From positions 17,788-81,787 of the forward strand of contig JAFGBH010000096.1 in the NCBI GenBank assembly GCA_016933215.1: a DNA stretch of 64,000 nucleotides. Reading direction: 5' to 3'. This DNA comes from Deltaproteobacteria bacterium (GTDB lineage: Bacteria; Desulfobacterota; Syntrophia; Syntrophales; UBA2210). The translations under genes and the position numbers were made by a program. Of the stretch, positions 7,054-33,884 are shown in pieces. Below the pieces are notes generated by a model. It saw only the letters and a program-made list of their open reading frames with translations, was not told where the DNA came from and did not search any database. Within the stretch, counting starts at the first letter, position 1; every line of letters begins with the position of its first letter.

Positions 7054-8157
7054 TTATTTCAGTCGCTTTCGTAATCCCCTCTCAACAGTCACAACGAAAT
7101 CCTGAACATTCGTGAGGATGGATCGTGCCGTAAGGGAACCGCGGTTTGCAAGCTTGTTCACGGCAAATTCAGACATATCGACGGTATAGAAATAGACAGG
7201 CCTCACCAGACCGTTTTGTTCCACTTTATAGGAGGGGACCATGTTTCCCGTGGCAATTGCGTGAAGCTGCGTGGCCATTGCAATAACGGTGGTTGCCCGC
7301 CTTGTTATGTTTCTCATTGCGTCCTGCGCTTCATAGACATCGGCGATAACCTCGGGAAGGGGTCCGTCATCTCTGATGGAACCGGCAAGAACAAAGGGAA
7401 CACTTTTCATTATCGCCGCCCGCATAATCCCGTCTCTAACAAGACCTTTATCAATTGCTTTTTTTATCGATCCGATACCCCGTATTCTTATTATCGCATC
7501 GAGATGATTGTAGTGGCCGAGTCTCACCGTTTGCTTCGAGTATATGTCCTGCCCGAGACCCGTTGCAAAAAAGGCAGCCTCCATATCATGGGTTGCGAGG
7601 GCGTTCCCCGCGAGAAGGGCATGAACATACCCTCCTTGTATCAGTTCCGCAAAGGCATTTCGTGCATCGCGGTCAAAGACAACGGCAGGCCCCAGCACCC
7701 AAACGATGAACCCTCGTTTTCTTTCAAACTCCAGAAGGTCATAAAGCTCATCGTAATCGATGGAAAAGGCCGTTTCCCTTGTTATTCTTGAGCGGAAGGC
7801 AAATTTCTCCGATGCATGTTCCGGAAAGTCAAAGGCCTTCGTATGGACAAATATCCCGTCCTCTCCGTTTTCGCCCCTCCCGCATGCGACGAAATCACCC
7901 GGTTTAAGATGACGAAATTCCTTCACGTGGAGAGAGTCTCCTCCTGTCCTCGCCACAACGCAGTCCATCCGGGAATCATCAAGAAGACGCCAGTCCCCCT
8001 TCTCTACATGAAAGTACTCCGGATATACCGATGTGGCATGATAATTTTCGGGTGCCACACCCTCTTTTTCGACCTTTTTGAACGTCACAAGAGGCGCGTC
8101 AAGAAATTCGGGCCGCTTGAAATCGGGGATTTTATACTCGGGAAGGGTGAATGACAT
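7054..8157 (-). CDS. TIGR00300 / LOR-SDH-domain family protein, putative archaeal-type ornithine cyclodeaminase
   Basis: The ORF runs 7054..8172, but the ATG at 8157 preceded by GAGGTG is the likelier start. The sequence (MSFTLPEYKIPDFKRPEF...) recalls the TIGR00300 family, which includes the OCD domain of cyanobacterial ArgZ/AgrE. This was not searched. Confidence 0.55.
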   Translation of the reverse strand: MSFTLPEYKIPDFKRPEFLDAPLVTFKKVEKEGVAPENYHATSVYPEYFHVEKGDWRLLDDSRMDCVVARTGGDSLHVKEFRHLKPGDFVACGRGENGEDGIFVHTKAFDFPEHASEKFAFRSRITRETAFSIDYDELYDLLEFERKRGFIVWVLGPAVVFDRDARNAFAELIQGGYVHALLAGNALATHDMEAAFFATGLGQDIYSKQTVRLGHYNHLDAIIRIRGIGSIKKAIDKGLVRDGIMRAAIMKSVPFVLAGSIRDDGPLPEVIADVYEAQDAMRNITRRATTVIAMATQLHAIATGNMVPSYKVEQNGLVRPVYFYTVDMSEFAVNKLANRGSLTARSILTNVQDFVVTVERGLRKRLK

Positions 8158-9689: not shown

Positions 9690-10505
9690 TCAAATAAAAT
9701 TGTGGACCGTTACAAAAAATATATTTACCCCTACAAAGGTAAAAAGGAGGATAACAAAGGCAACAATAGAGAGAACGGCGACCTTCCTCCCCTTCCAGCC
9801 TATGGCGAATCTCTGATGCAGTAAAAGGGCATAGATGATCCACGATATCAGCGTTGATACCTGTTTGGGATCCCACTGCCAGTGACTCCCCCACACGTTT
9901 CGTGCCCAGACGGAACCCGCAATAATCCCCAACGTGAGGAGAAAAAATCCCGCGACAATACAGATGTTGTTAATCCTGTCGAGTTCCCTCAGGGAAGGAA
10001 GAAGGCGACTGAAACCGTAGGCCTTCTTGTTTCTGATAAGGTCATCCTGAACAAGATACATGATGCCGGAAAGACAGGCGAGAGCAAAGAGGGCACTCCC
10101 TGTGAGGGTCAGCATCACATGGATGGGAACCCAGGACCCCATTAATATGGCGGGAATTTCAGCATCCTCCACCAACCGGGCCGACGCCGTTATCGCCATT
10201 ACAAGGACGACGGGAGAAACAAAGGCACCGAGGACTCTTGTCTTTGTCTTTACCTGAAAAATGAGATAGATTCCCGAAACCGCCCAGGCAATAAATGAAA
10301 GGGATTCAAAGAGGTTTGTAACGGGGCTGTGTCCCGTCTCAACCCATCTGAAAATAATAGAGGTGGTATGAGCCGCAAAGGCAGAAAAAAGGACCCATGT
10401 GGACACCTTCGCGACCTGCACCCTCCTCACAACAAGAGAGGTGATATACCCGAGCATGCTCAGAAAATATAATACGAGCGCTATCTTAAAGAAGAGACTG
10501 CCCAT
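9690..10505 (-). CDS. CcsA/HemX-like cytochrome c assembly family membrane protein
   Basis: 271-aa polytopic membrane protein with the Trp-rich motif WGSHWQWDPKQ typical of CcsA/CcmC heme handlers. It sits immediately downstream of hemA, as hemX does in Bacillus. Confidence 0.7.
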   Translation of the reverse strand: MGSLFFKIALVLYFLSMLGYITSLVVRRVQVAKVSTWVLFSAFAAHTTSIIFRWVETGHSPVTNLFESLSFIAWAVSGIYLIFQVKTKTRVLGAFVSPVVLVMAITASARLVEDAEIPAILMGSWVPIHVMLTLTGSALFALACLSGIMYLVQDDLIRNKKAYGFSRLLPSLRELDRINNICIVAGFFLLTLGIIAGSVWARNVWGSHWQWDPKQVSTLISWIIYALLLHQRFAIGWKGRKVAVLSIVAFVILLFTFVGVNIFFVTVHNFI

Positions 10506-10543
10506 CGTTTACCATCCCTTTACCTGCATTCGATATCATCCGA

Positions 10544-12280: not shown

Positions 12281-13044
12281 CAATTCCACGGATCTTCTCC
12301 CCCGAAACCCTGCGAGAAGGAAAATTACTGGAAATAGAAAAGGGCAACTCCCAGTATATAAAGAATGTCCTGAGAATGAGACTAGGAGACAAACTTTCGC
12401 TCTTTGACGGCAGGGGATCAGAACATGAGGCCGTTATTGTTGATCTCTCAGAAGGAAGACTATCCCTAAAGATAGGGGAAAAGATACAAGTCGGGGTTTC
12501 AAATCTGAACGTCACCTTAGCCCAGTCCCTTCCAAAGGGTGGCAAAATGGATTTTATTATTCAAAAATCGACGGAACTCGGCGCAGACAGGATCATCCCC
12601 TTCATATCGTCCCGATCAATTCCACGACTATCAGAAACCAAGGCCGAGACCAAGTGCAAAAGATGGAGGAAAATCGCCATCGAGGCATCCCGGCAGTGCG
12701 GCAGGGCGAAGATACCCGAAGTGACCGGAATCGTTACCTTTGAAGAAATGCTCACGATGAGAGAAGATGAAAGTCTCGGCATCCTGTTATGGGAGGATGA
12801 GTCTGAAAGGGGCATCAAAGAAATACTGAGAGATGAAAGATACCGCCCTCTGGAAAAATTCTTCATCGTAGTGGGACCGGAGGGAGGATTGTCGAAGAAA
12901 GAGGTAGAAAAAGCAACCGCGCACAATTTCATTTCTGCAACGATGGGGACTCTTATCTTGAGAACCGAGACAGCTCCCCTCGCCATCCTCTCCATATTGC
13001 AGTATGAAAAAGGGATACATGGCAAAGCGGAACAGGGAGCCTGA
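12277..13044 (+). CDS. rsmE: 16S rRNA (uracil1498-N3)-methyltransferase
   Basis: 255 aa. It has an N-terminal PUA-like region, KMDFIIQKSTELGADRIIP and VVGPEGGLSKKEVE. It overlaps prmA by 4 bp, the common prmA-rsmE pairing. Confidence 0.88.
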   Translation: MTIPRIFSPETLREGKLLEIEKGNSQYIKNVLRMRLGDKLSLFDGRGSEHEAVIVDLSEGRLSLKIGEKIQVGVSNLNVTLAQSLPKGGKMDFIIQKSTELGADRIIPFISSRSIPRLSETKAETKCKRWRKIAIEASRQCGRAKIPEVTGIVTFEEMLTMREDESLGILLWEDESERGIKEILRDERYRPLEKFFIVVGPEGGLSKKEVEKATAHNFISATMGTLILRTETAPLAILSILQYEKGIHGKAEQGA

Positions 13045-13571: not shown

Positions 13572-13647
13572 GGGTCGGTAGCTCAGTCGGTAGAGCACGG
13601 GACTGAAAATCCCGGTGTCGGCAGTTCGATTCTGCCCTGACCCACCA
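13572..13647 (+). tRNA. tRNA-Phe (anticodon GAA), CCA encoded
   Basis: 76 nt, folded by hand. The acceptor stem is GGGTCGG/CTGACCC, the D arm GCTC-AGTCGGTA-GAGC, and the anticodon stem CGGGA/TCCCG with loop CTGAAAA. The T arm is GGCAG-TTCGATT-CTGCC, and it ends in ACCA. Confidence 0.95.
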
Positions 13648-13686
13648 TTGGTATTAAGGGGTTAGTCACTTTGGCTGGCCCCTTTT
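13600..13686 (+). repeat. attL: direct repeat formed by the 3' 48 nt of tRNA-Phe plus downstream hairpin region
   Basis: 51 bp are identical to 33589-33639. The match then continues imperfectly (AAGGGGTTAG(T/C)CACTTTGGCTGGCCCCTTTT) to about 13686 / 33675. Confidence 0.85.
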
Positions 13687-14762
13687 TTCGTCCCAAAATC
13701 TGCAAATGTAACTGTTTTGTAACCACGCTGCTCATTTAGGTATATTTCCTGTTTCTGGGCTGCCAATTTCAGGTCATCGGCACTCACAATATTGTATCGC
13801 TCGAATACTGATCTTGTTTTATGTCCTGAAATCATCATAGCAACCCGCTCGGGAACACCAGCTCTCACCATATTTCTAACCGCTGTACGTCTCAAATCAT
13901 GGAATAGCTTTTTGCCTATTTTTGCTCCCTTGCATGCAGTATTCCACGACTTTCTTAACTGCTTTATCCTGTCGCTCCCGTTTTTGTTCGTAAACACATA
14001 AGGCGTCAGTTTACCGGCTTTTTTTCTTGCCTCCCATTGCGCATTAATAACCGTTTTCAACTCGTCATCAAGATAAACGATACGACCCTCGTTGTTCTTG
14101 GTCTCCCCAGCCTCAAGCCTCACAATGCCATTTTTAAGGTCAACGTGGCTCCACGTTAGCTTACTGATCTCTGACTTACGCCACCCTGACTTATAGGCAA
14201 AAGTCACAAAACCCCTTAAGTGTTCCGGTAATTTGCCCCTCAAGGCTAAAAACTCCTCATGCTCGAAGAAACCCTTCCTGACATTATTCTCTTTCAGCAT
14301 AGAGATGTAAGGAACCCTATCGACCTTCGGCGGAGTCTGCTGCGCACCGAGATTCAACATTCGCTTGAGTGCAGAAAGTTCACGATTGATTGTCGCGTTC
14401 TTCGCCTTTTCCATTTGCCTCTTCTCAACATATTTATTGATCAGGGGAGTCGTTATATCGACCACTTTCATACCTTCAAAGTAGTCTTTCAGGCGATCCA
14501 CGCTCCGCTCGGCACGGTCAAGAGACTTCTTACCGTTAATCCTATAGTCAGCAAGAAACTCTTCGGCCAACTCATCGAACCTCACTTTCTCAAAGTGCAC
14601 ACCCGGTATTTTACCCTGCGTAATTTCCCCTTCACGCTTTTTTAGTAAACCTCTCGCTACTCCCACTTTATCGCTATGGGTAGATTCGACATATGGCTTC
14701 CCGTTGCGATAGTACTTAATTGTGTAATTCTTTCCTCGTCTATAGATACATCCCATTTTCAC
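13662..14762 (-). CDS. int: Tyrosine-type site-specific recombinase (phage integrase family)
   Basis: 366 aa. The C-terminal catalytic signature is LFHDLRRTAV ... ISGHKTRSVFERYNIV (R..HxxR..Y). It is adjacent to the tRNA, and its last codons lie inside the att repeat. The start is GTG 14762 or ATG 14756. Confidence 0.9.
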   Translation of the reverse strand: MKMGCIYRRGKNYTIKYYRNGKPYVESTHSDKVGVARGLLKKREGEITQGKIPGVHFEKVRFDELAEEFLADYRINGKKSLDRAERSVDRLKDYFEGMKVVDITTPLINKYVEKRQMEKAKNATINRELSALKRMLNLGAQQTPPKVDRVPYISMLKENNVRKGFFEHEEFLALRGKLPEHLRGFVTFAYKSGWRKSEISKLTWSHVDLKNGIVRLEAGETKNNEGRIVYLDDELKTVINAQWEARKKAGKLTPYVFTNKNGSDRIKQLRKSWNTACKGAKIGKKLFHDLRRTAVRNMVRAGVPERVAMMISGHKTRSVFERYNIVSADDLKLAAQKQEIYLNEQRGYKTVTFADFGTKKGASQSD

Positions 14763-15980: not shown

Positions 15981-16713
15981 TTTTCTTCTCCTTTGGTTTA
16001 TATAAATCCGCCTCATCGAGATACTGCTGCCAGTGTTGCTTTCTGAAAAGGGTAGCGGGATGAAAAAGTTTGGGGTTTTCGATGAAATAGGGGTCTTCTG
16101 ATTTAAGGGCAATGATTCGGCAACACTGATGTACCGAGCCACCGTCTTTTAAACGGGCGGCGATATTTTCCGATGCGGTGACGGGTTTTAAATCCTTCCG
16201 TTTAGCTACCCATTCCCGGTATTCGTTATATACTTGAAGGACCTCTGCCACCCCATCCTCTAAAAGAACCCTCTCGTCGGCGTGATGCCTTATATATATA
16301 TTCTTTTCTTTCTTTTCTTTTGTGGGTGCCATTTTTGGCAACAGTTCCGTTGCCATTTTTGGCAATAGTCCGTTGCCATTTTTGCCATGTGTCATTTTCG
16401 GCGACAGCTGCCATTTGGTGTAATCTTTTTGAAGGCCATAGGAAATGATGAGGGTGGAGTCATCTTTAATGATAATTCTCCGTTTTGTAAGGTCCTTGAG
16501 GGCGCGTCCAATATGTCTTCTGTCCAATCCCGTTTTCTTTTGGAATGAGCTGATGCTGATTCGATCCGTCTTCTTTTTCCAGCCGTAGGTCTGTCGCAGG
16601 ATCACCCATAAAAGCCGCCACTGATTACCGGATAGTTGTAAGCGATAGAAAGCTTCCCCGATTTCATTTGCTATCTGCATATATCCGTTTTCTAACTGTG
16701 GGGTTCCGGACAT
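15970..16713 (-). CDS. Replication initiator-like protein (phage replication protein O N-terminal winged-helix type)
   Basis: The ATG at 16713 is preceded by GAGGGAG. The N-terminus NGYMQIANEIGEAFYRLQLSGNQWRLLWVILRQTYGWKK is RepO/DnaD-like. The central LPKMAT/LPKMAP repeats are encoded by the iterons. Confidence 0.6.
   Translation of the reverse strand: MSGTPQLENGYMQIANEIGEAFYRLQLSGNQWRLLWVILRQTYGWKKKTDRISISSFQKKTGLDRRHIGRALKDLTKRRIIIKDDSTLIISYGLQKDYTKWQLSPKMTHGKNGNGLLPKMATELLPKMAPTKEKKEKNIYIRHHADERVLLEDGVAEVLQVYNEYREWVAKRKDLKPVTASENIAARLKDGGSVHQCCRIIALKSEDPYFIENPKLFHPATLFRKQHWQQYLDEADLYKPKEKKNGT
16327..16420. repeat. Iteron-like direct repeats (putative origin of replication) inside the RepO-like gene
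   Basis: TGCCATTTTTGGCA occurs at 16327 and 16351 and TGCCATTTTTGCCA at 16374 (spacing 24/23 bp). Degenerate copies are TGTCATTTTCGGCG at 16390 and TGCCATTTGGTG at 16409. Confidence 0.6.
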
Positions 16714-20881: not shown

Positions 20882-20984
20882 GTTAGAGACACTGTTACCT
20901 CCTTTTGTAACAGCTGTCGATTCTACTATAATTCGTTTTACGGTCCCGGGCTATACAGCGTCGTAGCTCGGGACCACTTTTTTT
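20882..20984 (+). ncRNA. Putative small RNA, copy 1 (promoter-hairpin-terminator unit)
   Basis: Upstream are TTGACA (20849-20854) and an extended -10 TGgTTTAAT (20867-20875). Hairpin CTGTTAC/GTAACAG (20892-20913) has CCTCCTTTT in its loop. The terminator is GGTCCCGGGCT/AGCTCGGGACC (20942-20975) plus T7. A paralogue lies at 33219-33323. Confidence 0.4.
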
Positions 20985-22279: not shown

Positions 22280-22909
22280 GAGCGGAATGTCCTTCAGGAT
22301 TTGCTTACTGAGACAGGCGAAGTAACTTTTGTGAAAATTGCAGAGCTCAAAGTAAAATCACCTTATGAAAGATACGCAACCCAAGAAAAAGAAAAGAGTC
22401 AGGTATCCGATACCGGAAGAGGGGCCGTACCTTCCGAAGGAAAAGTACAGACAATCTTCCCCGAAATCATATCCGGTATTACAGGAGCGTATCGAACTGG
22501 TACGCTGACAGTCACATTGCTATCGCAAATTATAATCCTAAGTATGGTTTTTTCATCTGTTGAATTAGATGAGATAGCTACAATCAAATCTGACACTTGA
22601 CATATAGAGGTAGTAGCCATAGCCACCCTTCCGCCTGCTAATCTTTGGTATCGATTGAGCGCAAAAAGCCACCATTGCAACTACAAATCTTCAATGTTAA
22701 TCAGTGAAAAATACAAGTCCCAGCAATGATATTTTTGTAATATAATAAAATATTTGACTAATATCTTAATGAAGGATATTCTTCATCTTGGTTTTATTGA
22801 GAATTTGTTCTGTTTTAGCGTTATCGAGTTGACCTGAATTTTCAAAGTGAGGGAATTATGGTCAGACTATTGAAGCCCTGTTTCTCAAAAAGAGAGGCAG
22901 GGTTTTGTT

Positions 22910-23461
22910 TTGGATAGGTACAAAGGGCACTGCTCCACATTGTTTAAAAGCGTTTTTCGTTATGTTGCTCTCGATGTTGAGACAACGGGTCTGTCTCCCC
23001 GAAAAGGTCATAGGATAATCGAAGTAGGGGCAGTCGCCATTGAATATGGGAAACCAGTAGGAGAATTGTCGAGTCTTGTAAATTCCGGTAGAAAAATACC
23101 ATGTCAGACTGCGCGAATACACGGAATAACCGATGCAATGCTCACTAATCAGCCTTTGCCCGATGAAATAATGCCACGATTATGGGATTTCCTGAAGGAC
23201 AGTATTGTAATCGCCCATAATGCAAGGTTCGATGTTGAGTTTCTCAGACATGAATTTGGACTAATTTCATTACAGTTGGAGAATAAGGCTGTCTGTACAC
23301 TGGAAATGAGCAGAAAGCTCTATCCAGGGTTGCCCAATCACAGGCTCAATACCGTTTACAGATATTTGTTTGGAGAAAAGCCCGCGAATGTTCAAAGGCA
23401 TCGGGCGCTCGATGATGCGAAGATGACTGCCGCAATATGGCTTGAAATGGTTAAGCGATGA
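22910..23461 (+). CDS. DnaQ-like DEDDh 3'-5' exonuclease (DNA polymerase III epsilon-like), stand-alone, coupled to cas3
   Basis: 183 aa with a TTG start. The three motifs are ExoI ALDVETTGL, ExoII IAHNARFDVEFL and ExoIII HRALDDAKMTA. Its stop TGA overlaps the cas3 ATG (ATGA at 23458-23461). Confidence 0.8.
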   Translation: MDRYKGHCSTLFKSVFRYVALDVETTGLSPRKGHRIIEVGAVAIEYGKPVGELSSLVNSGRKIPCQTARIHGITDAMLTNQPLPDEIMPRLWDFLKDSIVIAHNARFDVEFLRHEFGLISLQLENKAVCTLEMSRKLYPGLPNHRLNTVYRYLFGEKPANVQRHRALDDAKMTAAIWLEMVKR

Positions 23462-26239: not shown

Positions 26240-27811
26240 ATGGAATTTAATCTTATTGAGGAAAGATGGATTCCCATATGCAGGAAGAGCGGCAGAGAAG
26301 AACAAATAGCCCCGTGGGAGATTACCGATTCCTATGAATCGGATCCCGTTATATCGCTGAGTGTGCCCAGGCCCGATTTTAACGGTGCCCTCATTCAGTT
26401 TCTCATAGGACTGGTGCAGACGACGACGGCTCCGAAGGACGAGGATGAATGGGAAGATTGTTTCGACACGCCACCTTCACCCAATAAGCTAAAAGTAGCC
26501 TTCGAGACAGTTAAACACGCCTTTAATCTTGGGGGAAACGGTGCGCGTTTTATGCAGGACTTTGATGCAATAGAAACCACTCCGCAAAACATATCCGGCC
26601 TCCTTATAGATTCTCCCGGTGAAAATACTCTGAAAAACAACGCGGATCACTTTATAAAACGAGGCAACATAAGTTGTATGTGTCCATCCTGTGCGGCGAC
26701 AGCACTTTTCGCACTCCAGACAAATGCGCCTGCGGGAGGTGTAGGCTATCGGGTATCTCTTAGGGGAGGCGGGCCACTTACGACACTTGTTGTTGGTGGT
26801 AGTGAGGAGGCAAACAGCCTATGGCAAACTGTATGGCTGAACATTGTTGAGAAAAATGAATTTCTCAGGATCTGTTGCGATTCCAAAAAGAAAGATGATC
26901 CCGATATGTTTCCCTGGATGGCGAAAACACGGACCAGCGAAAAACATACCGGTCATGACACGACACCGGAAGACATTAACCCTGCACAGATGTTCTGGGG
27001 AATGCCACGGCGTATACGTTTGAACATCGACGATGCAAACCAAGGGATGTGTGACATATGTGGCAGTTCCTCCAAAGAGATCGTTGATACATATATAACA
27101 AAGAACCATGGGGTAAATTATGTCGGGCCGTTTTTACATCCTCTTTCCCCGCACAGCAGGCAGGATGGTGTTCCATTCCCTGTTCATGCCCAGCCAGGCG
27201 GCGTTACCTACCGTCACTGGTTGGGCCTTGTGCAGGCAGACAAAAAAAATAATCGTGAGCCGGCACTTGTGGTCAATAAATTTGTCTCTCGTCAAAGGAG
27301 TGACTGGCCCTTGCGTCTCTGGGCCTTTGGATACGATATGGATAACATGAAGGCACGTTGCTGGTACGAATCAACCATGCCGCTCCTGCCTCTCGAAAAG
27401 GAACTACGTGAAGGATATGAGGACAATATTGCCAGCATGGTCATGGCCGCTTCGGAAGCTGTCAAGAACCTCAGGAGCTGTGTAAAGGCAGCGTGGTTTA
27501 AGAGGACTAAGGATAAAAAAGGGGACATGAATTTTCTCAGTAATTGCTTCTGGCAGAAGACGGAAGATGATTTCTATACTGTGTTAAGCAAGCTTAAAGC
27601 CGCTCTCGAAGAAGGAGACGGTAGTGATTTGATTCGCCAAGATTGGCATAAATGCATCTGCCGAACTGCTCTGTCTCTATTCGACGAAGCTGCCTGGAAC
27701 GGTCCCATAGAAGATGCCGATCCGAAACGGGTTGTCCTCGCACGACAGGAATTAGAGAGAAAAAATAATAGTAAAAAAATTAGGGAAGAATTGCTTGATC
27801 TGCCAGAATAA
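26240..27811 (+). CDS. cas8e: Cascade large subunit Cse1/CasA (Cas8e)
   Basis: 523 aa. The N-terminus MEFNLIEERWIPI is like E. coli CasA (NLLIDNWIPV). It sits right after cas3. Confidence 0.9.
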   Translation: MEFNLIEERWIPICRKSGREEQIAPWEITDSYESDPVISLSVPRPDFNGALIQFLIGLVQTTTAPKDEDEWEDCFDTPPSPNKLKVAFETVKHAFNLGGNGARFMQDFDAIETTPQNISGLLIDSPGENTLKNNADHFIKRGNISCMCPSCAATALFALQTNAPAGGVGYRVSLRGGGPLTTLVVGGSEEANSLWQTVWLNIVEKNEFLRICCDSKKKDDPDMFPWMAKTRTSEKHTGHDTTPEDINPAQMFWGMPRRIRLNIDDANQGMCDICGSSSKEIVDTYITKNHGVNYVGPFLHPLSPHSRQDGVPFPVHAQPGGVTYRHWLGLVQADKKNNREPALVVNKFVSRQRSDWPLRLWAFGYDMDNMKARCWYESTMPLLPLEKELREGYEDNIASMVMAASEAVKNLRSCVKAAWFKRTKDKKGDMNFLSNCFWQKTEDDFYTVLSKLKAALEEGDGSDLIRQDWHKCICRTALSLFDEAAWNGPIEDADPKRVVLARQELERKNNSKKIREELLDLPE

Positions 27812-27865: not shown

Positions 27866-28369
27866 ATGAATGAGGGAAAGTATCTCAGATTTTCGAAGGA
27901 TTCGCCGGAGAGCAAGGCGTTGCTCGAGTGGTGGCGAGGGTTGGAAAATAATCGGGGTGATCGTGCCGCCCTCCGACGCTGTCGCAGCCTTACAGAAGTG
28001 GTGTTTGTTCCTTCTTATCACCGTTTGAGGCAGGAATTACTTCATTTCGGAAATGTAGACAGCGAGGGACTTGCAATAACCGTGGCCCTTGCTGCCCAAG
28101 TGAAGGCAGACAACTCCGAGCATACCCTTGCCCAGCAAATGGCTCTTCCCAAAGCGGGCGGCTCTGCCAAGGTAAGCGGTTTACGTTTCCGGCGACTGCT
28201 CAAGATCCAGCGCAGGGAAGATATGTATCACGCTATGATTAGAATCATGGCACTTTTGGGGAGTTCGCTTAACCTTATAAGCTTGGCCGAAAGCGTTTAC
28301 TGGTGGAATGATCTTACGAGAAAAAAGTGGGCATTCGAGTATTACACAAACGCTCCATCAGAAAAATGA
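27866..28369 (+). CDS. cse2: Cascade small subunit Cse2/CasB (Cas11e)
   Basis: 167 aa. The segment LLEWWRGLENNRGDRAALRRCRSLTEV is Cse2-like. It is in the canonical position. Confidence 0.88.
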   Translation: MNEGKYLRFSKDSPESKALLEWWRGLENNRGDRAALRRCRSLTEVVFVPSYHRLRQELLHFGNVDSEGLAITVALAAQVKADNSEHTLAQQMALPKAGGSAKVSGLRFRRLLKIQRREDMYHAMIRIMALLGSSLNLISLAESVYWWNDLTRKKWAFEYYTNAPSEK

Positions 28370-28392: not shown

Positions 28393-29463
28393 ATGAGTAG
28401 ATTTATTCAATTGCACCTGCTTACTTCGTATCCGCCGTCAAATCTTAACAGGGATGACCTGGGACGTCCCAAGACCGCAGTGATGGGAGGCAAAACGCGC
28501 CTCCGTATTTCATCGCAAAGTCTTAAGCGTGCGTGGCGCAAGTCGGATGTCTTTGAAGAAGCGCTGGAATATCATATGGGTACCAGAACAAAGCGTATGG
28601 GATTAAAGATATATAAGGCTTTTCTGGAGGAAAAAGTTCCAGACAAGAAGGCAAAGGACTGGGCAAAACAAATCGCAGGACAATTCGGAAAATGCAAGAA
28701 ACAGACGGATTCAAACCCGCTGGAAGACTTGGAGATAGAACAGTTAGCTCATTTCAGTCCTGAAGAAGAGAACGCTATAAATGTTCTGATCGGCAAACTG
28801 GCGCTCGGCAGCGAAGGTCCGGATGAAAATGACCTCAAACTTTTGACAAAACAGCAAAGCGCCGTCGATATTTCTATGTTTGGAAGAATGCTTGCGGACA
28901 GCCCGGCTTATAACATTGAGGCGGCTGTTCAGGTTGCTCACGCGATAACTGTCCATGAAGTCGCGGTTGAAGACGATTATTTCACCGCTGTTGATGATCT
29001 GAACGAAGGCGAGGAGGATATGGGTGCCGGACATATCGGTGAGACCGAGTTCGCTGCCGGTGTGTATTATCTGTATGTGTGTATAAATAAAGAACTCCTG
29101 GTGAAAAATCTTAATGGTAATAAAGAGCTTGCCGACAAAGCCGTTGCCGCTCTTGTTGAAGCAGCCTCAAAAGTAGCGCCGACAGGCAAACAGAATAGTT
29201 TTGCCTCCCGCGCATATGCCTCCTACATTATGGCTGAAAAAGGTGATCAACAACCACGTTCGCTCTCCGTGGCCTACTTGAAGCCGGTTCGCGGAGATAA
29301 CGGGAGCGGTATTATGGCCGTTGCAATAAGAGAACTGGAAGAAAATCGAAGCAGGATGGAGAAAGTATATGGTCCGTGCGCCGATGAGTGTAAAAGCATG
29401 AACGCGGAGACAGGTGCGGGTGAGGGAAGCCTGAACGAGATAATCAACTTTATAAAGGAGTAA
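28393..29463 (+). CDS. cas7: Cascade backbone subunit Cas7e (CasC/Cse4)
   Basis: The ATG at 28393 is preceded by AGGAG. MSRFIQLHLLTSYPPSNLNRDDLGRPK...RISSQSLKRAWR closely parallels E. coli CasC. Confidence 0.93.
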   Translation: MSRFIQLHLLTSYPPSNLNRDDLGRPKTAVMGGKTRLRISSQSLKRAWRKSDVFEEALEYHMGTRTKRMGLKIYKAFLEEKVPDKKAKDWAKQIAGQFGKCKKQTDSNPLEDLEIEQLAHFSPEEENAINVLIGKLALGSEGPDENDLKLLTKQQSAVDISMFGRMLADSPAYNIEAAVQVAHAITVHEVAVEDDYFTAVDDLNEGEEDMGAGHIGETEFAAGVYYLYVCINKELLVKNLNGNKELADKAVAALVEAASKVAPTGKQNSFASRAYASYIMAEKGDQQPRSLSVAYLKPVRGDNGSGIMAVAIRELEENRSRMEKVYGPCADECKSMNAETGAGEGSLNEIINFIKE

Positions 29464-29469
29464 AAACCC

Positions 29470-30195
29470 ATGCGTGAATATCTTATGTTTAGACTTTACG
29501 GTCCAATGGCCTCTTGGGGCGATATCGCGGTGGGCGAATACCGGCCAAGCTACGCGCATCCGAGCAAATCGGCGGTACTGGGCATACTTGCCGCTGCCGT
29601 GGGCATGCGTCGCGAAGAAGAAGACAAACAGCGACAATTTGCCGATTCATACGGCTTTGCCGTACAGGTTCATGCCGCCGGGACACTCTTGCGCGATTAT
29701 CATACAATACAGGTGCCACCGAAACAAAGGGGTGTAAAGCATGCTACACGTCGTTCGGAACTTTTGGCCCCCCAACTGAACACCATCCTTTCAAGTCGAG
29801 ATTATAGGTGCGATGCCTTTTATACCATTGCAATCTGGGATCTCGTCGAACATCCGCCTTACAGCCTTGGTGAACTTGCCTCATCTCTCGCGTGTCCAGT
29901 ATTCACCATTTACCTCGGGCGTAAATCATGTCCGCCGTCACTCTCCATGCAAGCCCGCACTATAAGAGCGGAAAATCTAAAACAGGCCTTTTTGAATGTT
30001 AACTTCTCCGATAAGGATATACCGTCTGGTTTGCCAAAGAGCGGGCATATTGCGACCTACTGGGAAGGTAGCGATAGCGGTTTTGAAAGCGAACATGTCA
30101 TTATTCGTCGCGATAATCCTACAAGCCGCCGTCGGTGGCAGTTCGCGGATCGTGAAGAACGGTATGCGGGTGTTGCATCGGTGAAGGAGGGATAG
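29470..30195 (+). CDS. cas5: Cascade subunit Cas5e (CasD)
   Basis: 241 aa. MREYLMFRLYGPMASWGDIAVGEYRPS...SKSAVLGILAAAVG parallels E. coli CasD. Confidence 0.93.
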   Translation: MREYLMFRLYGPMASWGDIAVGEYRPSYAHPSKSAVLGILAAAVGMRREEEDKQRQFADSYGFAVQVHAAGTLLRDYHTIQVPPKQRGVKHATRRSELLAPQLNTILSSRDYRCDAFYTIAIWDLVEHPPYSLGELASSLACPVFTIYLGRKSCPPSLSMQARTIRAENLKQAFLNVNFSDKDIPSGLPKSGHIATYWEGSDSGFESEHVIIRRDNPTSRRRWQFADREERYAGVASVKEG

Positions 30196-30199
30196 GAAT

Positions 30200-30883
30200 A
30201 TGTATATGAGCAGGATTAAATTAAAGCGGGATGCGCCAAGTGTGAAGGAACTTGTGAAATTGCTGAGCGGCGATGGATATCAGGCACATCGCCTCATATG
30301 GAACCTTTATGCGGACACCAAGGAGAGAAAAAGGGATTTTCTTTACAGACAAGAGGGAGACGGTATTTGGCCCTTTTTCTATGCGGTATCGGAACGTTTC
30401 CCCATAGACAAAACCGGTACGTGGCAGATTGATTCTAAGAGCTACTCTCCGAAGTTATCAAAAGGGCAGCCACTATCCTTCGTCATTCGTGTTAATCCGA
30501 TTCGAGCAAAAAGAGATGAGCAAAACAAACTGCACAGACATGATATCGTAATGGATGCTAAAACCCATGCAAAGCAACAAGGAAACAGATTCGGCGGAGA
30601 TAAATCGCTGGCTGATCTGATTCAGGAAGAAGGCGCAAAATGGCTTGACGCGCGGTCGGAAAGATATGGATTTTCCATAGATCACAGCCATATTCGCGCA
30701 GACGGATACCGGCAACACGTTGTATATAAAAGAAAAGCCACATCTCCGATCCGCCTCAGCTCGCTGGATATTGGCGGAGTCCTTACCGTCATCGAACCGG
30801 ACCTCTTTGTAAAAACACTGCATACGGGCATCGGCCCAGCAAAGGGGTTTGGCTGCGGACTGATGCTGGTAAAAAGGATTTAA
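30200..30883 (+). CDS. cas6e: CRISPR RNA endoribonuclease Cas6e (CasE)
   Basis: 227 aa. The C-terminus GIGPAKGFGCGLMLV matches the CasE signature GIGPAKSMGCGLL. Confidence 0.93.
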   Translation: MYMSRIKLKRDAPSVKELVKLLSGDGYQAHRLIWNLYADTKERKRDFLYRQEGDGIWPFFYAVSERFPIDKTGTWQIDSKSYSPKLSKGQPLSFVIRVNPIRAKRDEQNKLHRHDIVMDAKTHAKQQGNRFGGDKSLADLIQEEGAKWLDARSERYGFSIDHSHIRADGYRQHVVYKRKATSPIRLSSLDIGGVLTVIEPDLFVKTLHTGIGPAKGFGCGLMLVKRI

Positions 30884-30885
30884 TC

Positions 30886-32107
<1,222 letters not shown>

Positions 32108-32167: not shown

Positions 32168-32989
32168 ATGTTCCCCGCATACGCGGGGATGAACCGGTAT
32201 CCATCAGCGGCATTGGTATCTATAACAAATGTTCCCCGCATACGCGGGGATGAACCGAACCGAGAACCGACATAACCGTAACGTGGGAAATGTTCCCCGC
32301 ATACGCGGGGATGAACCGGCGATACTGGATGGCAGAAAGACCGTCACCCGATGTTCCCCGCATACGCGGGGATGAACCGATACACCAATTAAATAAGCCT
32401 TATTATAACTAATGTTCCCCGCATACGCGGGGATGAACCGCATTATTTTGTTATTAACCTCCAAAAAAGGGGATGTTCCCCGCATACGCGGGGATGAACC
32501 GTCCTGTAATATGTTGCTGTCTTTATAGAGGTCATGTTCCCCGCATACGCGGGGATGAACCGTAGCTCCCGCAAGTCTATCCTGGGCTATAGTAATGTTC
32601 CCCGCATACGCGGGGATGAACCGCTATTGGAATAGTTCGCCTTTTTATAGTTCATATGTTCCCCGCATACGCGGGGATGAACCGACATTTGATCTTGTCC
32701 TTCGGCTCGTACTCATATGTTCCCCGCATACGCGGGGATGAACCGCCTTTTAGCGCGTCCTTCAGGTGACGGTGAAAATGTTCCCCGCATACGCGGGGAT
32801 GAACCGTTCCCGAATTTCGTCTACTAAGTCAATCGGATATGTTCCCCGCATACGCGGGGATGAACCGGGAAAATACAATGTCTTAACTACTCTGAAGGCA
32901 TGTTCCCCGCATACGCGGGGATGAACCGCTACGGTAGACGAGTCGCCTGTGTCAACGGTAATGTTCCCCGCATACGCGGGGATGAACCG
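32168..32989 (+). CRISPR. Type I-E CRISPR array, 14 repeats / 13 spacers
   Basis: The 29-nt repeat ATGTTCCCCGCATACGCGGGGATGAACCG recurs at an exact 61-nt period (32168, 32229 ... 32961). All 14 copies are identical, and the spacers are all 32 nt. The repeat has the I-E stem CCCCGC/GCGGGG. Confidence 0.97.
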
Positions 32990-33218: not shown

Positions 33219-33323
33219 GAATTGGGACCATGTCCCTCCTTTTGTATGCATCTCATGCTAATCTACAGTTATTCGCTTCACGGTCCCGGGCTATACAGCG
33301 TCGTAGCTCGGGACCACTTTTTT
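33219..33323 (+). ncRNA. Putative small RNA, copy 2
   Basis: Hairpin GGGAC-cat-GTCCC (33224-33236) is followed by the CCTCCTTTTGTA block (33235-33246). The terminator GGTCCCGGGCT/AGCTCGGGACC (33282-33315) plus T6 is identical to copy 1. Confidence 0.4.
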
Positions 33324-33588: not shown

Positions 33589-33675
33589 GGACTGAAAATC
33601 CCGGTGTCGGCAGTTCGATTCTGCCCTGACCCACCATTGATATGAAGGGGTTAGCCACTTTGGCTGGCCCCTTTT
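33589..33675 (+). repeat. attR: duplicated 3' fragment of tRNA-Phe (not a functional tRNA) plus downstream hairpin region
   Basis: It is identical to 13600-13650 over 51 bp and then imperfect. It lacks the 5' acceptor, D arm and 5' anticodon-stem strand. Confidence 0.85.
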
Positions 33676-33884
33676 TGGTTCTTCCTGGTTTCTTTCGAAA
33701 TCAATGGCGAAAAGGGAAGAATAGTGGCTGTGGTTCCTTACAATTACTGAGAAATTGAGCTTCTTTTTCGTTGATTTATCCACCCATTGCTGATATAGGC
33801 TTTGGGCCTGAATTTCAGTAAAATCAATGGCCACAAATCACCACAAGCCATTCAGGACTGCCACATATATCATAAGGATTTGAA

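Follow-up and report, generated by a model that had tools for sequence, protein, structure and literature searches.

Cas4 is a cas-encoded nuclease that processes the 3' overhangs of prespacers for Cas1-Cas2 in CRISPR systems; it has a PD-(D/E)xK fold with an iron-sulphur cluster, recognises the protospacer adjacent motif and forms a complex with Cas1. Type I-E systems lack Cas4. A fusion of Cas2 to a DEDDh exonuclease domain, the Cas2/DEDDh trimmer-integrase, trims prespacer 3' overhangs in cis, and exonucleases of the host can do much the same in trans (PMC10284694). In vitro, the E. coli exonucleases DnaQ and ExoT trim prespacers bound by Cas1-Cas2 (10.1101/608976). A passage of Wang et al. 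2023 (PMC10284694), citing Makarova 2020, further refers to stand-alone DEDDh exonucleases as widespread ancillary components of CRISPR-Cas loci. Here, a stand-alone DEDDh gene was analysed in a 64,000-nt stretch of contig JAFGBH010000096.1 (positions 17,788 to 81,787; assembly GCA_016933215.1, a Deltaproteobacteria bacterium of the Syntrophales), referred to as the window. As judged by the sequences of the window and of related loci, this gene is the first of a type I-E cas operon, nearest the promoter, and was probably coupled translationally to cas3 in the ancestor of its clade.

The preliminary description of the window had read an open reading frame (ORF) at 22910-23461 as encoding a 183-aa exonuclease with all three Exo motifs, ending in a TGA that overlaps the start codon of cas3 and so forming the first gene of the cas operon. 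The ORF (plus strand) is intact, the three motifs and the ATGA overlap are present as described (Table 1), and a complete type I-E operon and array follow. The system includes eight cas genes, identified with Pfam and NCBIfam models, and 29-nt repeats, and a gap of only 1 nt separates cas3 from cse1. The ATGA overlap makes translational coupling between the DEDDh gene and cas3 possible. The length of 183 aa stands as that of the maximal ORF, but most homologues, which are mostly 171-178 aa long and have an ATG aligned with TTG 22940 of the window, favour 173 aa, as does the NCBI call for the 99%-identical protein P0001. At one related locus, L005, the codon equivalent to 22940 is CTG, and an in-frame extension leads back to a GTG/TTG equivalent to 22910. 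Hence, the DEDDh start is ambiguous between TTG 22910 and TTG 22940. Both candidate starts give an identical catalytic domain, and residues are numbered here according to the 173-aa form. Across 37 aligned relatives, D12, D98, H154 and D159 never vary and E14 is retained in at least 90%; H93, N94, A95 and F97 of Exo II and R155, A156 and L157 of Exo III are likewise invariant. Thus, the loss of catalytic residues that the preliminary description had named as a possible refutation was not seen. A pseudogene was also considered and was ruled out by the intact ORF and the conserved motifs.

The profile search that had been proposed for this gene gave a match to Pfam RNase_T (PF00929; E = 4.1e-35, 122.2 bits against a cut-off of 24) over profile positions 1-163 of 164, and the epsilon-family domain model of NCBIfam, TIGR00573, was also passed (110.4 bits against 71.5). 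Together with the motifs, the full-length profile match places the predicted protein in the DEDDh superfamily. An AlphaFold2 model (mean predicted local distance difference test score 91.8, predicted template modelling score 0.87) has the RNase H-like alpha/beta fold expected of such exonucleases. In a Foldseek search, this model matched the exonuclease domains of PolC, DinG and epsilon at query-normalised template modelling (TM) scores of 0.85-0.88, among them S. aureus DinG (8zef, 0.88) and E. coli epsilon (0.87); the DnaQ domain of S. thermophilus Cas2 (8h18) scored 0.85 and the Megasphaera Cas2-DEDDh protein (8fyc) 0.81. Among solved structures, the T. maritima protein 2p1j is the nearest in sequence (39-40% identity), with E = 1e-27 for the single sequence and 1.9e-43 for the profile. 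Epsilon (2e-18) and Cas2-DEDDh 8fy9 (2.2e-13) came behind it in the single-sequence search, and the order was the same in the profile search, at 4e-22 for Cas2-DEDDh against 2e-43 for 2p1j. Both searches thus gave no specific kinship with the Cas2-fused DEDDh domain. Nor was a Cas2/DEDDh fusion found in the window, where Cas2 is 107 aa long, has only the Cas2e domain and is encoded 8.3 kb downstream of the DEDDh gene. Sequence comparison therefore identifies the protein as neither a detached copy of the Cas2-fused domain nor a member of the Cas2/DEDDh fusion family. It is best described as a stand-alone DnaQ/PolC-exo-like DEDDh protein that is predicted to be a catalytically competent 3'-5' exonuclease. 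NCBIfam families of DnaQ-DinG fusions were also matched (NF005981, 2.6e-34; TIGR01407, 4.5e-31). A match to the PADLOC model 'DEDDh, CAS associated' (PDLC01247; E = 1.2e-40) adds nothing beyond the domain, as cas-unlinked DEDDh genes matched this model equally well or better (1e-44 to 8e-32) and the model is therefore generic.

Given the similarity to E. coli epsilon in sequence and fold, and since some databases label relatives of the protein 'DNA polymerase III subunit epsilon', a host Pol III epsilon (DnaQ) lying beside the cas genes by chance was considered. However, the protein consists of the exonuclease domain alone (173-183 aa) and lacks the C-terminal segment that epsilon has beyond residue ~180. 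It also falls far short of the equivalog cut-offs for Pol III epsilon (TIGR01406, 119.6 against 222.7 bits; NF004316, 113.5 against 196 bits) and is thus not the replicative proofreader. The gene lies on a mobile island, described below, and its relatives are specifically linked to cas3. On these four grounds this identity, which is highly improbable, was rejected.

The linkage to cas3 was surveyed, as had been suggested, in a clade of 14 distinct loci (designated by L numbers) with at least 44% identity to the window protein, chosen for long contigs and with several from related samples. The background comprised DEDDh loci with at most 43% identity and at least 3 kb of downstream sequence. 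The best 120 protein hits were all at least 54% identical, and the few that were named came from metagenome-assembled genomes of Deltaproteobacteria/Desulfobacterota and Anaerolineae. A single-protein scan of genome contigs gave only three loci, of which L011 belongs to the clade. A scan of metagenome contigs with the clade alignment yielded, among the matches listed, mostly distant DEDDh proteins (36-43% identity). These served as the background control and were not counted in the clade; among the listed matches, the closer ones were limited to L014, L015 and L068.

In this small sample, the DEDDh gene of 11/14 clade loci is followed downstream, on the same strand, by cas3 or by a stub of it. 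A type I-E cas3 starts within an identical ATGA overlap in the window/L001 and in L007, 62-69 nt downstream of the DEDDh gene in L005 and L015, and 2.2 kb downstream in L095, where a WYL regulator lies between. A type I-C-type cas3 is found at +53 nt in L004/L011, at +0.75 kb in L094, where the I-C system is complete and includes Cas4 and Cas1, at +1.2 kb in L014, and at about +5 kb in L008 to L010 and L096 to L098, where genes for toxin-antitoxin, Abi, SLFN-ATPase and Fic proteins intervene. In L002/L003 (133 aa) and L102 (77 aa), cas3 survives only in truncated form, and no cas genes were found within 10 kb of the DEDDh gene in L099 to L101, L103 and L104. The upstream neighbours of the DEDDh gene vary in most lineages. 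In the background, no cas matches were found near DEDDh at any of the 88 loci (0/37 metagenomic loci, among the matches listed, and 0/51 viral loci). The plasmid collection contained no clade members (identity at most 42%), and none of its 40 best I-E cas3 records had an adjacent DEDDh gene. The viral contigs likewise contained no clade members and no cas linkage. The linkage to cas3 is hence not due to chance, and the conservation that the preliminary description had asked about is evident within the clade, though the figures of 11/14 against 0/88 and 0/40 show that the association is clade-restricted and not general to type I-E. The gene is therefore an accessory gene linked to CRISPR, and its clade, restricted in lineage, was found mainly in metagenome-assembled genomes of Desulfobacterota and Anaerolineae.

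The ATGA at the DEDDh stop codon is kept in 12/14 clade loci, even where the resident cas3 starts elsewhere, and the stubs that begin at the junction ATG or, in L095, lie just before a different resident cas3 (Table 1) encode the N-terminus of a window-type Cas3 (MNN..YYRYWGK..HLLPYHCLDVAA). Small ORFs that follow the DEDDh gene in L008, L094 and L099 had no similarity to Cas3 and were not counted as stubs. The retained ATGA and the stubs indicate that the overlapping order of DEDDh and cas3 is ancestral and that the cassette downstream was replaced several times. From the sequences, then, the Cas3-Cascade cassette has evidently been replaced or deleted repeatedly, with breakpoints in the 5' end of cas3.

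Divergence was compared in four I-E loci, the window, L005, L007 and L015. Pairwise identities are 79-89% for Cas1, 76-87% for Cas2 and 45-63% for the DEDDh protein, while Cas3 and Cas7 of the window are only 33-37% identical to those of the other loci. L015 is the outlier in both DEDDh (45-48%) and Cas1 (79-81%), the remaining pairs being 60-63% and 87-89% identical, respectively. The DEDDh pattern thus follows that of Cas1 and Cas2 and not that of Cas3 and Cas7, in which the window is the outlier. The order of the effector genes also varies, with cas6e preceding cas7 in L005 and L007. As judged by these identities, one adaptation module is common to divergent I-E effector variants. Three features of L015 were recorded in addition: what is left of an I-C-type Cas3 N-terminus (128-412; 63% identical to residues 3-53 of L011 Cas3) and a 328-aa ORF of no assigned family (378-1361), both upstream of the DEDDh gene, and, between cas6e and cas1, an extra gene for a 280-aa protein.

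The junction also carries traces of other insertions. In L008, the final ~130-150 nt of the DEDDh gene occur three times (8037-8099, 10360-10510 and 12289-12423; also seen in L009 and L010), bracketing RhuM and SLFN/AlbA-ATPase cassettes located between the DEDDh gene and a type I-C locus. The pattern resembles what a series of insertions at the 3' end of the DEDDh gene would leave behind and identifies the junction as a hot spot for insertion or recombination. Furthermore, in three syntenic pairs of loci the DEDDh proteins are 67-88% identical and the flanking housekeeping genes 54-91%, which indicates that the gene can occupy a single site over long periods, whether or not cas genes are present. 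These observations bear on an explanation under which the gene would be a resident exonuclease of general repair or processing, outside the CRISPR pathway, that forms the fixed left border of a variable cas/defence island, its 3' end and the 5' end of cas3 being an insertion hot spot and co-transcription a matter of position only. The triple 3' ends in L008 and the syntenic identities, which fit long vertical residence, are in its favour. So are the intact copies with all catalytic residues at loci without cas genes (P0058 and P0021), the toxin-antitoxin, Abi, Fic and WYL genes between the DEDDh gene and cas3 in L008, L095 and L096, and the repeated replacement of effector cassettes just downstream, which left cas3 stubs of 8-133 codons. 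However, it is the upstream neighbours that vary in almost every lineage, whereas on the downstream side there is cas3 or what remains of it; in the window, a mobile island carries the gene together with the cas operon; and an ancestral 4-nt overlap with a conserved Cas3 N-terminus is not expected of a mere insertion target. The loci without cas genes could also be recent deletions, as L102 keeps its 77-aa stub and L099 is syntenic with L102. A resident exonuclease is therefore considered somewhat unlikely.

Adjacency to cas3 could alternatively point to a partner of Cas3 in interference, which would be produced in concert with Cas3 and digest, from free 3' ends, the single-stranded DNA that the Cas3 helicase-nuclease lays bare once it has nicked the R-loop. 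Such an enzyme would complete the destruction of the target and could shorten Cas3 products into precursors of prespacers for primed adaptation, by analogy with the pairing of exonuclease and helicase in DinG-type fusions. The feature conserved in I-E and I-C loci, with or without Cas4, is indeed adjacency to cas3; the clade inherited the ATGA overlap with the start of cas3 from its ancestor; and the order of exonuclease then helicase is that of the matched DnaQ-DinG families (NF005981, TIGR01407 and 8zef). Yet the DEDDh gene stays while Cas3 is swapped for variants that are 33-35% identical or of the I-C type, which argues against a specific, co-evolving interface with Cas3. Cas3 moreover has its own HD nuclease, and the DEDDh gene is intact where cas3 has gone. 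No DEDDh-Cas3 fusion was seen among the 120 best hits of a chimeric DEDDh and HD query, a weak argument since DEDDh-only hits were missing from the list. An interference partner is accordingly rated as unlikely.

The function that we favour, with a probability of roughly 45%, is 3' trimming in trans of prespacers bound by Cas1-Cas2, as suggested by analogy. The free exonuclease would trim the 3' single-stranded overhangs of prespacers while these are held by Cas1-Cas2, and the length of the spacer would be set by the footprint of the integrase and not by the nuclease. Carriage of the gene on a horizontally moving CRISPR island would make the system less dependent on the exonucleases of the recipient. 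Trimming is favoured because of the precedent of Cas2/DEDDh and of DnaQ and ExoT, because the I-E loci have neither Cas4 nor a Cas2 fusion, and because the divergence of the DEDDh protein matches that of Cas1-Cas2 and replacement of Cas3-Cascade is tolerated. Retention of the gene while Cas3-Cascade cassettes change indicates that a cognate Cas3 is not needed. In addition, Cas2 is short and unfused in the I-E loci of the clade (98-107 aa), which fits an exonuclease that is supplied separately. Exonuclease activity, a role in CRISPR immunity and trimming in particular are all what we infer from these comparisons.

Several points weigh against trimming. Neither DnaQ nor ExoT is needed in vivo for prespacer 3' ends in E. 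coli (PMC9699676). The clade also heads type I-C loci that carry Cas4 (L094, and also L008, L014 and L096). In L099 and L103, intact DEDDh genes are retained at syntenic sites of the chromosome that have no cas genes beside them, and they diverge there at roughly the rate of the housekeeping genes on either side, or a little faster. The gene lies at the cas3 end of the operon, opposite cas1-cas2, and the Cas2-fused DEDDh (2e-13) is no closer to it than the PolC-type (1e-27) or epsilon (2e-18) exonucleases. The agreement with Cas1-Cas2, observed in four or five loci, could also arise if both flanks are kept when the middle is exchanged. The proposal in the preliminary description that the trimming nuclease is supplied as a separate gene linked to cas3 thus holds for gene order and linkage, but the co-occurrence with Cas4, the copies without cas genes and the lack of kinship with the Cas2-fused domain cut against a simple trimmer.

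Trimming in trans might also be combined with the adjacency to cas3. The clade would then represent a dedicated exonuclease that acts on Cas3 products, is made in a fixed ratio to Cas3 through translational coupling and converts the products of unwinding into integration-ready prespacers during primed adaptation. At the same time, the DEDDh 3' end and the first codons of cas3 would serve, with cas1-cas2 at the other end, as a recombination anchor for swapping Cas3-Cascade cassettes, even across subtypes, while the adaptation machinery and the trimmer stay in place. This combined proposal is speculative and regarded as quite unlikely.

Table 1. Coordinates of the DEDDh gene, the type I-E system and neighbouring features in the window, and of cas3 stubs in related loci.
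Feature	Position	Strand	Evidence or remark
DEDDh (DnaQ-like) 3'-5' exonuclease gene (predicted)	22940..23461	+	173 aa from TTG 22940; alternative TTG 22910 gives 183 aa
Exo I motif DVETTG	22973..22990	+	catalytic D12 and E14; translation
Exo II motif HNARFD	23216..23233	+	catalytic D98; translation
Exo III motif HRALDD	23399..23416	+	catalytic H154 and D159, 'h' subtype; translation
ATGA junction	23458..23461	+	DEDDh stop TGA 23459-23461 overlaps cas3 ATG 23458-23460
cas3 (HD nuclease and helicase), 926 aa	23458..26238	+	Pfam Cas3_HD 2e-38, Cas3-like_C_2 1e-38; NCBIfam cas3_core 237.9 bits
cse1/cas8e	26240..27811	+	Pfam CRISPR_Cse1 4.6e-123
cse2/cas11	27866..28369	+	Pfam CRISPR_Cse2 5.3e-14
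cas7e	28393..29463	+	Pfam Cas_CT1975 7.1e-104; start as in L001 gene call
cas5e	29470..30195	+	Pfam Cas_Cas5d 1.6e-39
cas6e	30200..30883	+	Pfam CRISPR_assoc 7.1e-46
cas1e	30886..31806	+	Pfam Cas_Cas1 1.6e-15
cas2e, 107 aa, unfused	31784..32107	+	Pfam Cas_Cas2CT1978 1.1e-36, sole domain; NCBIfam Cas2e
CRISPR array	32168..32989	+	14 x 29-nt repeat ATGTTCCCCGCATACGCGGGGATGAACCG, 32-nt spacers, 61-nt spacing; repeat search
Sigma-70-like promoter candidate TTGACT-17 nt-TATTCT	22754..22782	+	consensus match only; region aligns with L005
Terminator-like hairpin and T-run	22871..22907	+	between promoter candidate and DEDDh start; kept in L005
Left 88-nt direct repeat, putative attL	13600..13687	+	tRNA-Phe 3' half and 40 nt; repeat search
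Right 88-nt repeat, putative attR	33589..33676	+	97% identical, spacing 19,989 nt, just past CRISPR array
cas3 stub	L002 8519-8920		133 codons
cas3 stub	L102 10519-10752		77 codons
cas3 stub	L015 2162-2230		22 codons
Putative cas3 stub	L005 10555-10581		8 codons, too short for similarity confirmation
cas3 stub	L095 12648-12782		44 codons, immediately before resident different cas3

Upstream of the DEDDh gene, the strong terminator-like hairpin is located ~90 nt past the promoter candidate. Both elements are conserved in L005, where the counterpart of this region is at about 9880-10000. Folding of the 160-nt leader gave z = -2.99. The hairpin might act as an attenuator or insulator, or belong to a small RNA. 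A match of the leader to the Rfam family rnk_leader (27.5 bits against a threshold of 50, E = 0.02) was below threshold and was not accepted.

A ~20-kb island (13572-33676, including the tRNA-Phe gene at 13572-13647) encloses the DEDDh gene together with the whole cas operon and its array. A tyrosine-type Phage_integrase gene (13662-14762, minus strand) adjoins tRNA-Phe, and the left end of the island further includes HTH, excisionase-like and Rep_O-like genes. The integrase and the 88-nt tRNA-Phe repeats around the locus indicate that the system is carried on an integrative island, so the suggestion that it is mobile was borne out. Four tandem iteron-like repeats of ~19 nt (TGCCATTTTTGGCAACAGT) at 16327-16408, inside or beside the Rep_O-like gene, fit a replication origin of the integrated element. 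A 62-nt direct repeat with a GC-rich hairpin and T-run was found at 20922-20983, upstream of a PfkB gene, and, 92% identical, at 33262-33323, just after the array. These copies bracket a 12.3-kb segment with PfkB, DEDDh, cas genes and array, and the repeat could be a duplicated terminator or a trace of module insertion.

It is an open question which enzymes generate the 3' ends of prespacers in vivo where Cas4 is absent, the E. coli candidates being redundant and dispensable (PMC9699676). An island with its own stand-alone DEDDh gene and an ordinary Cas2 offers a cleaner and tractable natural system for trimming in trans. The retention of the exonuclease and of Cas1-Cas2, with exchange of the Cas3-Cascade genes between them, also bears on the turnover of effector modules, for example under anti-CRISPR pressure. 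Should the gene be only a positional neighbour, the finding would be an ordinary one. None of this conflicts with current models.

The literature searched, which excluded the texts of Makarova 2020 and Drabavicius 2018, yielded no description of a DEDDh-cas3 operon. Neither DEDDh nor DnaQ is named in the Shmakov 2018 preprint, where exonuclease occurs a single time, in the reference list (RecJ). What was not found in the searched literature is a clade with an ATGA onto cas3, its retention through cassette swaps, its persistence after loss of cas genes and its carriage on an island. The arrangement of a free DEDDh gene inside a cas locus is the same as that of the stand-alone DEDDh genes of Makarova, and the architecture is therefore already of a recognised kind.

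The Cas2/DEDDh trimmer-integrases, which include the Megasphaera NM10-related proteins (8fy9-8fyd) and the Cas2-DnaQ of S. thermophilus DGCC7710 (8h18), share with the window a type I-E system without Cas4, the fold and the DEDDh catalytic set (TM 0.81-0.85, 27% identity) and an exonuclease encoded within the cas operon. Unlike in these systems, the exonuclease of the window is separate, Cas2 is an ordinary Cas2e and the gene lies at the cas3 end. Trimming was demonstrated for the fusion (PMC10284694) and is only proposed for the window gene. In sequence, the product of this gene resembles epsilon and exonucleases of the PolC type more closely than it does the Cas2-fused domain, suggesting independent recruitment. 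E. coli DnaQ and ExoT are likewise free 3'-5' exonucleases of the DEDDh family that act in trans on Cas1-Cas2-bound prespacers in vitro (10.1101/608976), but they are housekeeping enzymes not linked to cas genes, whereas the window gene is carried by a CRISPR island.

The T. maritima protein 2p1j is of similar size and is also a stand-alone, PolC-type exonuclease domain only; we know of no CRISPR context for it. S. aureus DinG (8zef) has a DEDDh domain N-terminal to a superfamily 2 helicase-like module, the same order as DEDDh followed by Cas3, but in a single polypeptide and with a helicase of a different family than Cas3. Cas4 has a fold unrelated to DEDDh. The co-occurrence of the clade with Cas4 in I-C loci indicates that the exonuclease is not simply a substitute for Cas4, while the absence of Cas4 from type I-E leaves a niche that the window gene might fill.

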